Positions 29,301 to 38,300 of a stretch of 64,000 nt of DNA are shown in pieces. Source of the stretch: Hormiphora californensis (taxonomy: Eukaryota > Animalia > Ctenophora); assembly GCA_020137815.1 (NCBI GenBank), contig CM035359.1:2914001-2978000 (forward strand), read 5' to 3'. The position numbers and the translations under genes are program-made. How positions within the stretch are numbered: position 1 is the stretch's first letter; each line of letters starts with the position of its first letter. Below the pieces are notes generated by a model. It searched no databases. It was not told the origin of the DNA and worked only from the letters and a program-made list of their open reading frames with translations.

Positions 29301-32300
29301 TACTGATTGTTGCAACTCTGGCAGCTGCAAACCGGCACTGTGGTACCGGTCCAATGCAGAAGGATTATAGGGGAAAAATTTCCAAAACTAAATCAGGGTT
29401 AAAATGCCAAAAGTGGACCAGCCAAAGCCCTCATAGTCACGACAATACCCCGGAAAAGTAAGTACACACCCCAGCAGGAACCGACCGAATTAAGTAAACA
29501 ACCAATCAGAACTCGTTATTTAGGTCACGTGACTGGTTATCAGCCAATCAGGGACCAGTATTTCCTGATTCGGTCGGTTCCTGCACCCCAGAAATCTTGA
29601 TGGCGCCGTCACCTCTCTAGAGTGGTGTTATTGCGCTTCGTGAGTTGTAAGGGTGACGGCGTCACCAACAAGAAATCTAATGTTCTATACTTCGACTTGT
29701 ACACAGTCAGAGTTAAGGCATTTTTAGTTTTAATTCCATATTTCACTGCATCTTACTGTTTCAGGACCCCTAATTCACCATGATCTCAACAAGTTTTACA
29801 TTATTTCAGGACCCCAAGAACTGCTCCTTCATCAAACCAATTATTTCAGGACCCCTAATTCACCATGATCAAGTTTTACATTATTTCAGGACCCCAAGAA
29901 CTGCTCCTTCATCAAACCAATTATTTCAGCAAACCAGGAACTGGTTTGGGAAACCACAACTACTGCAGGAATCCTGACGAAGAGCCTGAGGGTGCATGGT
30001 GCTACACTGTCGATAAAAAGAAAGAATGGGAATACTGTCCCGTTCCTCGATGTGGCGAAGGTGGAGGCCGTCGTCGTCGTGGTGGACAGTAGGCCCCCCA
30101 TCGCCGAGAGGATAAAGGAGCAGTGGCTATACGAACTAGGCCCCCTCCCCATCGCCAAGAGGAAATGAGCAGTGGCTAGGAACAGTAGTGTAAAACTTGT
30201 GAATCTACGACAGTGCGGCATCACCTCAATATAGTTAACTAAGTTGAGGCTTGTTACCTCACTATACATCTCATCATTTGACTGTCAAGTGTGTAACTGT
30301 ATCTCACTATACACCCACACACACACACACACTATACACCTCCAGTATTTAGCTCTAGCCATGTGTAGCTACCCCCCGGGTAACATGGTGGGGCGAATGA
30401 GGGGCAGCATATGTGGTAGATGCAGCATATGCAGCAGATTCAATGACCTCCCCCAATGGGGGAGGTCACTGTGTGTATCCGGATTAATTGATTTCACTGT
30501 GTGTATGAAATCCGGATTAATTGATTCATATGATTCATATGATTTGCGTGAAATCATATGAATCATATGGATCATATCAAAGTAAAACACGGGGTTTAAT
30601 AGATGAGCTAATTTAATTAAGGGGTCTGAGTAACCATGATCATTTCTCTAGATTGGAGTATGGATTTGGTATTGTTTCTTGTCTTACTATCGGGCACAGT
30701 ATTTGATACAGACCACAGTGACATGTATTTGATAATTGAAGGGGAGTATGGAACTAGTGTTTTGTGGAAAACTAACGGCAAAATTGAGTTTATAATAAGT
30801 AACGAAACTACTTCTATCCGTTACGATCATCCCATTACACCAAAGTTTAATTTCAATTGGGAAAAGCGCGAAATTAATGGCAATCCAATGTCATGGGTGG
30901 ATGGAGCAGAGATATTGGAATTCAATCCACTCAATGCGACAATGTTTGCCGACTTAACAATTGAATTAACGAGCCAGTCTATTTCTCTACCGATTACTGC
31001 TAGCGCTACAGATAGAAATGATTTATACTACATCATTTGCATTCTACTTTTGATAATAACCAAGGTTGATTTAAAGAAAGTCAAAAACCTCCTTGTGACA
31101 ACATTGTACCAGGAAATTACTCTAGCGTCAAATCAAGATTTATCTGTATAAAAGGCCATCAATATGACTCTGCTACCATTCATCTAATAACCATGTTCCG
31201 GAACTTTGTTATTGCTGGTGGATTAGGAGCTGATCCTGCCAAACTGTCTATGGCTATAGAACCGATCAAACTGCAGGAGAAAATGGGTATTGCAGTCAAA
31301 TCAGTGGCATATGGTGAGCTGCAAAACGTTAATACGAGCAATAACACCATAATTCTTCGATTTGATGGCCATGCAATGCTTAGAGATATAATGTCTGGAG
31401 CTTTTAAAAGCAGGAATGCAGTTCATGGTGACCATAAAGTTATAATCGAACCTGGATACTATTCGGAACGACAAGATCTGCTTGATGCGATAATTAATGC
31501 TTGTAATAGTTATCTTAATGAGCGTAAATATGACGGTGATTCAATAGCCATTAACAATGACAAAAGTGGAGGAAAATCTCGAATAAACCTACCAAAATAC
31601 GTGAACTTTCATCAATCACCACTTCTCCGAATGATTGAAGCAGAAGAAACAAGTGATAGGGAATGGAAAGTGTTTAACACCAACGACAAGCTAATAGAAC
31701 AGCAGATGATGGGGTGTTTTTATCTTAACATAGTTGAAAACAGTTTTATTAATGGGAGAAAATCCAGAATTTTATGTATCTGTCCGTTACAGTTTCGTTC
31801 GGGTTATTCATTTTACGAGTTTCAAAATCCGACATATGTACCAATTGAAGTGAGAGAGTTTTCTGATATTTCTCTTTCTATACGTGATTTTAACGGAAGG
31901 TTGATATCTTTTTCCAATAAATTTGATACAGTTGTAACGTTAGAGATGCGACCAATGCACTATAAATAGAAGCACATGATTGATTCATCATTATATTTCA
32001 AAATGGAACCTATCCGTTATAACCAAGACGATGAGTATTCCCGTGTCATTATGCAGCATGGATCTGGTCTAGATTCCGATGGATATTATATCTATAATCA
32101 AAATGGGGAGGGGATTGGAAGCTTTTTGGCATCACTTTTTAGAGGTGCTCTTCCTATTCTCGGATCGGCTATAAAAGGCGCCGCATCTGCCGCTACCCCT
32201 CATATTAAAACAGGCCTAAAACGTGCTGCTGTTGCCGGAGCTGAAGATTTGTTTAATCGCATCCACCCTATTGATCGGAAAGCTAAACGCTATCGTAAAA

Positions 32301-35300: not shown

Positions 35301-38300
35301 TTTTATAGCCGCGATTTCAAAAACCTCATAACTCCAAGATTGTTCATAGCCTTTTTGAAACACATTCTTTTTTCGAGTTATTCTAACAGTCTGTCCTACC
35401 TTATATCTAGGCTTTGCTGCTCTTGGTAGTTTCGGGAACAGATTACGACGAACTTTGGATTCGTTAGATTTGTTTACCTCGTTTGGCTTCATTTTTATGC
35501 TTCTATGGTGGCTGTCGTTATATCCATCCACTAGCTTATCTAGTATGTCAACCCATCTATGGGAACCCCTAGCAGTGAAGGCCCGAAACATGCGAGTCTT
35601 TAGCGTTCGATTAACGCGCTCGACAATCGCACACTTCCTGTCGGAAGAAACTGTAAATAAGTCAATTTTGTGCTTGGCCAATAGAGCCAGAAACTTTCCA
35701 TTTTTAAACTCTCCCCCATCATCTGTCTCAATCTTCTGAGGTTTTTCTCTCTCAATTAATGGTTTAAGGGCTTTTAAAACGGCTGCAGCAGTCTTGTTTT
35801 TCAATTTAAAGGCCCAAAGTTTTTTGCTGAATGTATCGATGCATGTGATGATCCATTTGTATCCGTTATTTTGCTTTGCATAAGCACTCATATCCACAAG
35901 ATCAATCTGGAACTGGTAGTTTATTGATTTCGTATAGATTCTGCGATATTTACTCGGTTTGCGAACAGGTTTATGGAGTGTATAACTGTGTGATGCCTTT
36001 AACACTTTTTTCACGGCACTGCGCTTTGTGGTAGAGTCTCTCTCCTTGGCTGCCTTGAAAAACGCATTTTGTCCAGTATAAGCTCCGCTAAATACAGGAT
36101 CAACGTAAAGTTTCGCTAAGTTTGACATAATGGTGATTTTTTGACACTTGTGAACCCTATAAATAGTCTCGAGAGAGAAAGAGAAATCAGTTATTCCAAT
36201 CAATACCATGGCGTCGTGTAATCAATGTGATGAAGTGTTTGAAACCGTCAGTGATTTGCTTCGACATAAAGCTACGAACCATGTTCCTATTGTTGCAGTT
36301 GGAATGCGGAATATTATCGATAGTGGGAAAAGAAAACGAGAAGAAAACGACAGTGATGAACGAATCGATAAACGTGAACGGGGAAATAGTGTTGAGAATT
36401 TTAGAAGGAGAAAGCGTAAAGAACCCGATTCTGATCACGATAACGATGACGTTAAGCGTCCTAGAAGGAGGGCTTACATAGACGATAGTTCGGATGAGAG
36501 TGAATCGATAAATCCTGTTAACGAAGAGCCGGATGAGCTACCAGTTGTTATACACAGAGAACATGATGATACCAAAACCCCATCACGTTTAGATTACTAC
36601 AAGAAACAAATTCGGATCCTTACCAACAAACTTCAACAGGCCCACACCAATGCAAAAGATTTTAAAAGACGATATGAAAACAAATTACAAGAATGTACCG
36701 ATAATCTAGGGCGATACAAAAATCAGATTTCTCTCCTAAAGCAGCAAAACCAGGAATTCGAAGTTCGCTTCAATGACCCCCATTACAAAGAGTTTTCTAG
36801 ATCCATCGTTAATAGCGTAAGCATAGAAAACTTTGTCCGCATAAAGGAACTTTTGGGAAAGGGGAAGATAAGCTACATATTAAGATCAAAACAGCTATTG
36901 GATTCATTGCAAGCGCTGATTATGGGATTGCAGTATGGTGTCATACCACTGGTTGTACAACAAAGCCAGGAACTAACATCATCGGATAGGAAACTCATTT
37001 CAAAGCTGGAGAACGTATCGAGGGAGGAAGTGAAACAAATAATTTACAAGAACAAAACTTCGTTTATTCATTTGTTCAGTATTATAGCTGAAAGTATTGA
37101 TTATCTCAAGCGTGTTGATGAAAATGTGCCCAAATCTGTTAGACGTTTAGAAATTAGCGACGAATCTTCCGATTCAGATTAATACCAAGACTTTGTCATC
37201 TATTAAACCCCGTGTTTTACTTTGATATGATCCATATGATTCATATGATTTCACGCAAATCATATGAATCATATGTCATCTATTAAACCCCGTGTTTTAC
37301 TTTGATATGATCCATATGATTCATATGATTTCACGCAAATCATATGAATCATATGAATCAATTAATCCGGATTTCATACACACAGTGAAATCAATTAATC
37401 CGGATACACACAGTGACCTCCCCCATTGGGGGAGGTCATTGAATCTGCTGCATATGCTGCATCTACCACATATGCTGCCCCTCATTCGCCCCACCATGTT
37501 ACCCGGGGGGTAGCTACACATGGCTAGAGCTAAATACTGGAGGTGTATAGTGTGTGTGTGTGTGGGTGTATAGTGAGATACAGTTACACACTTGACAGTC
37601 AAATGATGAGATGTATAGTGAGGTAACAAGCCTCAACTTAGTTAACTATATTGAGGTGATGCCGCACTGTCGTAGATTCACAAGTTTTACACTACTAGGA
37701 ACTAGGCCCCCTCCCCTCGTTGAGAGGAGCAGTGACAAGCTGAGCTGTTTGAGCAGATCTTATGGACCCACTCCTTCCCATCCCTGAGGAATGTAATTGA
37801 AATACTATTTACTACTTAGTAGATTTGATCATTTCAACGAAATTCAAGCCGTTTAATTCAAGCCGTGTTAATATCATTAATATGCGTCACTAACAATGCT
37901 ACCCAGCCTGGCGTGTATAATAGAAAACATGGTATTTTACTCTTACAAACTTCGGAGAGAGAATGAGAGAGAGAGGGACACACACATCACACATAAATAA
38001 ACACGCAAAACCATTCATCGTGGGCGAACTCTAGTAATAACGGACTCTTTATCTTAACCCAAGGTGGACTCTATATCTAAAAGCGGACTCCTTAAATCTA
38101 CAGTTTCACTTTGAAAAAAGTTTAGATAAAGAGTCCGCCATGTGTAGACTTTTTAGACATAGAGTCCTCTAATACATAATTCTGGTGCCAAATCCTCCAA
38201 CCCGAACTCTGTCTGTCTAAAATCCTAAAATGTCTGTCTAAAATGTCTGTCTAAAATGTCTGTCTAAAATGTCTGTCTAAAATCCCGATTTACCGGGAAC

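Follow-up and report, generated by a model that had tools for sequence, protein, structure and literature searches.

A recently inserted 7.5-kb Polinton derivative without a recognisable DNA polymerase in the comb jelly Hormiphora californensis

We analysed a 64,000-nucleotide stretch of the Hormiphora californensis genome (assembly GCA_020137815.1, contig CM035359.1, forward-strand positions 2,914,001 to 2,978,000), referred to below as the window. An element of 7,513 bp occupies positions 30184-37696. It begins with AGTAGT and ends with ACTACT, and AGGAAC, a 6-bp target-site duplication (TSD), directly flanks it on both sides. Among the 63 AGTAGT/ACTACT pairs spaced 1-30 kb apart in the whole window, this pair alone was accompanied by a 6-bp duplication. 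The terminal inverted repeats (TIRs) measured 423 and 421 bp and were 99.5% identical, the sole difference being one 2-bp microsatellite unit. Nine uninterrupted open reading frames (ORFs) filled ~94.5% of the inter-TIR space, with a biggest inter-ORF gap of 94 bp. An earlier note based on the letters of this DNA (hereafter the original prediction) had reported these termini, repeats, TSD and packed ORFs, and re-measurement upheld them all. The left TIR contained several hairpins (folding z-score −5.5 versus 100 shuffles), and the inner end of the right TIR carried an exact 80-bp tandem duplication (37194-37353). The features of the element are as follows.

30178-30183: left TSD, 6 bp; direct repeat, with an empty-site joint that omits 7,519 bases (7,513 + 6)
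30184-30606, + strand: left TIR, 423 bp, with the (AGT)2 end; from sequence and folding
30636-31151, + strand: ORF1, 171 aa, likely a small membrane glycoprotein; from hydropathy and sequons
31193-31969, + strand: ORF2, 258 aa, penton (minor capsid protein); from predicted structure and viral minor capsid matches
31976-32311, + strand: ORF3, 111 aa, likely a virion core or membrane-active precursor
32308-33627, + strand: ORF4, 439 aa, double jelly-roll major capsid protein (MCP); from predicted structure
33624-34076, + strand: ORF5, 150 aa, adenain-type maturation protease; from a weak Pfam match and conserved residues
34104-34394, − strand: ORF6, 96 aa, conserved small protein; homologues in five loci
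34395-34470: 76-bp gap at the site that holds gene X in relatives, where the gap is 316-341 bp
34471-35070, − strand: ORF7, 199 aa, A32/IVa2-type packaging ATPase; from weak Pfam matches and a P-loop
35070-36128, − strand: ORF8, rve integrase with a C-terminal chromodomain, 352 aa from the likely start
36208-37182, + strand: ORF9, 324 aa, C2H2 finger, charged linker, coiled coil and a conserved C-terminal domain of ~115 aa
37194-37273: extra 80-bp tandem copy at the inner end of the right TIR
37276-37696, − strand: right TIR, 421 bp, with the (ACT)2 end
37697-37702: right TSD, 6 bp

A structural check of the virion genes, as the original prediction had proposed, returned a double jelly-roll for ORF4 and a penton fold for ORF2. 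The ORF4 model (predicted local distance difference test score, pLDDT, 86.4; 51 alignment rows) had iridovirus, Paramecium bursaria Chlorella virus 1 (PBCV-1), Sputnik and mavirus capsids as its top PDB matches (E from 2.5e-15), so that the predicted structure confirms this protein as a double jelly-roll MCP. The ORF2 model (pLDDT 81.7, 11 alignment rows) superposed on the mavirus penton with Z 10.8 and a root-mean-square deviation of 7.6 across 223 residues. It also matched Sputnik, PBCV-1 and adenovirus chains, with Z of 9.7-10.8 for mavirus, Sputnik and adenovirus. Because of the structural matches to these three viruses and the matches to viral minor capsid proteins, ORF2 is assigned as the penton on its modelled fold.

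The remaining core genes were recognised from families and conserved residues. ORF5 matched Peptidase_C5 below the cut-off (E=0.002), and H52, D67, Q100 and C107 were invariant in 7/7 alignment rows. ORF7 matched Pox_A32 (E=9e-4) and Adeno_IVa2 (E=1e-3), again below the cut-off; its P-loop was kept, and it was 64-73% identical to its relatives. ORF8, whose first ATG lies at 36209, matched the Pfam families rve (E=1e-11) and Chromo (E=3e-9) with the D, D and E positions conserved. The element therefore combines long TIRs with (AGT)2//(ACT)2 ends and a 6-bp TSD with an rve-chromo integrase, a double jelly-roll MCP, a penton, a packaging ATPase and an adenain protease, as do Polintons/Mavericks.

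The four other ORFs were less readily assigned. ORF1 has a hydrophobic N-terminus, a C-terminal hydrophobic helix and two N-glycosylation sequons; it had weak homologues in four related loci (L027, L028, L034 and L014) and no Pfam, PHROG or PDB match. It is likely a small membrane glycoprotein, judging from sequence features. ORF3 contains two Q-x-G-x-G motifs, which may be cleavage sites, and its position before the MCP is conserved among relatives; it likely encodes a virion core or membrane-active precursor. ORF6 had no family match in Pfam or PHROGs, and its PDB profile matches were judged to be due to chance. ORF9 likely encodes a nuclear regulator, and its homologues stand divergent from the integrase in L027, L028 and L034. 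No family match was found for its C-terminal domain, and an atlas search with ORF9 gave C2H2 leads alone, all under 0.9. PDB sequence searches returned nothing credible for ORF1, 2, 4 and 6, and a zinc finger alone for ORF9. A minority form of ORF9, in which 36638-36727 is skipped or replaced, occurred in all four read runs introduced below.

Relatives carry one further gene between the homologues of ORF6 and ORF7. Gene X (~115 aa) was found in 7/8 loci holding the 3' end of the ATPase gene, the eighth stopping before the informative region. Its product ends in Q-x-G-G, a protease-site-like motif, and an amphipathic-looking tail. The "full virion module" of the original prediction thus holds for the capsid, penton, protease and ATPase genes, all of which are intact, but not for this conserved gene with a protease-site-like motif.

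Canonical Polintons are defined by pPolB, the protein-primed DNA polymerase B, together with an rve integrase (PMC11296320; PMC8502044; here and below, citations refer to the available portions of each source). We built a pPolB profile from 10 related long proteins, 4 of them with a Pfam PF03175 match; the proteins were found via an ORF of a relative, and PF03175 was present in 4 of 17 matches scanned. In six frames across the whole window, this profile gave nothing at E<=0.5, and tblastn gave nothing at 0.01, whereas the control locus L032 scored 2.4e-60. The earlier claim that no pPolB remnant is visible was therefore borne out. Likewise, no trace of the 11 accessory ORFs of relatives was found in the window. 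Alternative replicases (primase-helicase, PolA, archaeo-eukaryotic primase, Rep) had no match in Pfam, PHROGs or PDB profiles, with folding restricted to ORF2 and ORF4. Two Polinton/Maverick hallmarks, pPolB and a length of ~15-20 kb (here 7,513 bp), are thus missing, and without pPolB we class the element as Polinton-derived rather than as a Polinton by definition.

Four read runs from two samples were examined as short-read contigs (X3 and X4 from sample S1; X5 and X6 from sample S2). An empty-site joint omitting 7,519 bases, namely the element and one TSD, was present in X3, X4 and X5, and X6 contained a second, diverged empty form. Empty alleles, which the original prediction had suggested looking for, were thus found in both samples, and its claim of a recent integration stood: the insertion is supported as recent and polymorphic. 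The element was covered in every bin in all four runs. Each of the eight gene-gene junctions was spanned in the compact order by a single contig, with seven found in X3 and the ORF6-ATPase junction in X5 and X6; contigs of the latter two runs also crossed the X-less 76-bp gap.

The most frequent contigs differed from the window copy, and several copies therefore exist. The presence of two empty forms and the element in S2 suggests copies at other sites; a pooled sample or a repeated flank also fits. In X6, a 666-base contig at 31726-32394 with 95 differences represents a sister family, ~85% identical, in the same host. Depth in X3, which is not a copy-number measure, stood at 185-355 for bins inside the element, at 71-92 for two bins of unique flank and at ~510 for the right-TIR bin.

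Among the 40 of 379 variants listed, 22 lay within the element and 18 within its ORFs. Sixteen of these 18 coding differences, spread across ORF1, penton, MCP, integrase and ORF9, were synonymous, against an expected share of 21-26% (P ~4e-8). Such a bias is the pattern expected under purifying selection; it is not assignable to the short copies alone.

The closest named relatives of the element were gene models of Pleurobrachia bachei (88% identity for the MCP and 74% for ORF9). In a quick tree restricted to members of its own clade, the window MCP paired with one P. bachei model with a support of 99. The MCP had 68 homologues, and it also matched 30 metagenome loci at 36-66% identity. With two loci on bacterial-bin contigs, these 30 formed a set of 32 related loci. 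Two longer members, L027 (14,083 bp) and L028 (10,986 bp), each had a counterpart of every one of the nine genes, weak in the case of ORF1, together with accessory ORFs; the gene order was partly different. L004 shared the convergent layout of the element. Because each of the nine genes has a homologue in longer relatives, none of them is a newly gained replicase. By this comparison, the gene set is a strict subset of the one carried by a widespread marine Polinton lineage.

L027 also encodes, at 13454-13888, a 144-aa protein that stands alone and is homologous to the N-terminal domain of Beta-type pPolB; several of its best matches have the same length. It is possibly a free terminal protein. 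We rejected the idea that this last ORF is a pPolB cut by the contig end, as it has its own stop codon. At position 331 of L028, ~900 bp from the ORF1 homologue, lies AGTAGTAG, which may be the left end of that element, making ORF1 the terminal gene there too.

Of 37 stretches from genome contigs, 2 held up, and these are the bacterial-bin loci counted above, L033 and L034, each a short contig. Both belong to the clade and are probably mis-binned eukaryotic virus DNA. In viral contigs, none of 89 candidate stretches from the MCP profile was confirmed, nor were any from the ATPase searches (0/9 and 0/242). The integrase searches gave 1/8, which was weak, and 1/194, the latter being L032, a distant pPolB-bearing element. 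The pPolB profile gave 12 viral loci with short weak matches. The TIR end pattern had no match in viral contigs, and the TIR of the element had none in the retrieved related loci.

Taken together, we consider with moderate confidence that the element is a recently inserted, polymerase-less Polinton derivative whose DNA is copied in trans by a pPolB that another Polinton-type element of this host supplies. The element itself encodes capsid, penton, protease, packaging ATPase and integrase. Its (AGT)2 ends would act as origins for the helper pPolB, its ATPase and capsid would package the copied DNA, and its integrase would insert the copy with a 6-bp TSD. Among Maverick end motifs, (AGT)2//(ACT)2 is the most frequent, and it has been tied to protein-primed (jumping-back) initiation (PMC8097293). 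As to the source of the polymerase, we tentatively lean, at less than even confidence, to a full-length relative, with the element as its satellite. A more doubtful version makes the element one segment, bearing the virion and integrase genes, of a split (bipartite) comb jelly Polinton, in which a TIR-sharing partner segment carries pPolB and the accessory genes. Both segments would then jointly fill a normal capsid, and each would integrate independently.

Several points weigh against copying in trans. The helper or partner element is deduced rather than observed. pPolB was found in 0/32 related loci, none of which is complete, three having been checked on this point, so the possession of pPolB by the clade is unproven; L027 and L028 have no TIR pair and are thus uninformative on this question. 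Among the listed joints, none revealed another insertion site bearing a TSD of its own. The TIR-interior junctions were unbridged among the listed contigs, which start at 30623 (X3, X6) and end at 37183 (X3). Such contig ends could reflect simple variation, or they could mark where a longer form branches off; in the latter case, the synonymous bias could stem from full-length copies. A 2:1 TIR-to-interior depth ratio would also fit a longer parent. Gene X is absent from the element. Finally, by analogy with intact vertebrate Mavericks, which are ~17 kb +/-10% (PMC8097293), an element of 7.5 kb is less than half the usual length, and this may hinder packaging. Its shortness is a mild argument that the element is co-packaged or packaged poorly.

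The best-surviving alternative, which we still regard as unlikely, is a one-off deletion in which pPolB and the accessory block beside one TIR went missing from this locus only, other copies being full length. The halting of contigs at 30623 and 37183, the 80-bp duplication of the right TIR's inner end, a candidate recombination scar, and the subset nature of the gene set are consistent with it; 96% of vertebrate Maverick copies are defective (PMC8097293). Against this, the window holds no remnant of pPolB or of the 11 accessory ORFs, the deletion endpoints would need to lie no more than ~30 bp from a TIR and likewise from an intact gene, and a second loss, that of gene X, is common to the copies in sample S2. 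The preference of the original prediction for an evolved architecture over a fresh deletion is thus partly supported, but every gene here also occurs in the larger sets of longer relatives, and the parent may have been longer, with additional TIR-adjacent genes.

It is improbable that the element is a cut-and-paste virus-transposon that dispenses with pPolB, with its integrase excising and reinserting it, host replication copying it and capsids carrying the excised DNA. The integrase is intact, pPolB was found in 0/32 related loci, including the 14 kb of L027, and many protist endogenous viruses have no detectable polymerase (PMC10120064). However, the related loci are incomplete, the L027 homologue of the Beta-type pPolB N-terminal domain points to a pPolB-using ancestry, and the (AGT)2 ends are retained. 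In addition, DDE integrases are strongly associated with pPolB in these viruses (10.64898/2026.10.13.758929).

We give very little credence to a cryptic replicase or initiator among ORF1, 3, 6 and 9: structural models cover ORF2 and ORF4 but not these four, and the ORF9 C-terminal domain matches no family, but ORF1 is membrane-protein-like, ORF3 and ORF6 are just 111 and 96 aa, ORF9 is mainly finger, charged linker and coiled coil, and all four are present in longer relatives. Equally slight is the chance of a collapsed longer element, which the original prediction had named as a possible refutation: no listed contig covers the full element, and a homopolymer-rich stretch at 57938-58490, open in several frames, resembles poorly corrected long-read sequence, but all eight gene junctions are spanned by short-read contigs, and what the empty-site joint omits is exactly the element and one TSD.

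Copying in trans, our preferred explanation, can be set against known systems. The element shares TIRs, (AGT)2//(ACT)2 ends, a 6-bp TSD, rve-chromo, MCP, penton, adenain and ATPase with Polintons/Mavericks and adintoviruses (PMC8502044, PMC8097293). It differs from the ~15-20 kb Polintons/Mavericks in its 7.5-kb length and in lacking pPolB, the accessory or 'oncoid' block and gene X. The nearest parallel is in butterflies, where polB-lacking Polintons have amplified beside polB-bearing relatives by a mobilisation mechanism left open (10.1101/2025.02.07.637071). These are likewise TIR-flanked, have lost polB and are apparently still amplifying, but they carry kilobase-sized long interspersed nuclear element (LINE) or gypsy cargo and have close polB-bearing relatives, whereas our element is compact, with no filler and with synonymous-biased variation. 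Polinton-like viruses (PLVs), as well as virophages, also have a capsid module without pPolB, and helper dependence is known for some; they mostly have another replicase and often a tyrosine recombinase, in contrast to the rve integrase and missing replicase found here (PMC11161782, PMC10120064). PLVs mostly lack both pPolB and rve and have other replicases (PMC11161782).

Segmented bidnaviruses and transpovirons offer known cases in which pPolB and structural genes reside on different DNA molecules, although bidnaviruses have parvovirus-type capsids, unlike the element, and transpovirons, which keep the replicase and lack the capsid, are its mirror image (PMC11071296, 10.64898/2026.10.13.758929). 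Reduction is described as proceeding through loss of virion genes (PMC4028283), and replicase modules may move separately from capsid modules (10.64898/2026.10.13.758929). In the available portions of PMC10748475, PMC11071296 and PMC10120064, no compact rve-plus-capsid animal element without a replicase is described. Nor did the literature searched, with subscription papers and Repbase outside its scope, describe ctenophore Polintons or a split Polinton. Repbase contains non-autonomous Polintons. Polintons without polB have already been reported, and the present element is smaller and cleaner than the reported cases.

The surroundings of the element were also inspected. It probably sits in a host intron, inside a short host repeat (30130-30150 resembles 37696-37716). 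Around 120 bp to its left, at 29940-30066, is a host exon that, by its motif, looks Kringle-like. A ~109-bp repeat with 24-bp inverted ends lies at 29475-29583, with copies at 8203-8311, 25007-25115, 27121-27214 and 40433-40540. The copies are 96-97% identical and read depth is extreme; the repeat is likely a very active miniature inverted-repeat transposable element (MITE). At 50630-53941 (+ strand), a 1,103-aa open frame presumably encodes a non-long-terminal-repeat retrotransposon reverse transcriptase-endonuclease, which it resembles.

Surveys starting from pPolB would miss elements of this type. If the short form is a stable family, a capsid-integrase module can live apart from its replicase, which would explain the amplification of polB-less Polintons left open in the butterfly preprint and provide a route for replicase swapping among such viruses. 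As an intact, polymorphic element with capsid genes apparently under selection, it makes this host a good place to seek Polinton particles. If the two-segment interpretation is true, the element would be part of a segmented, integrating double jelly-roll virus of animals.

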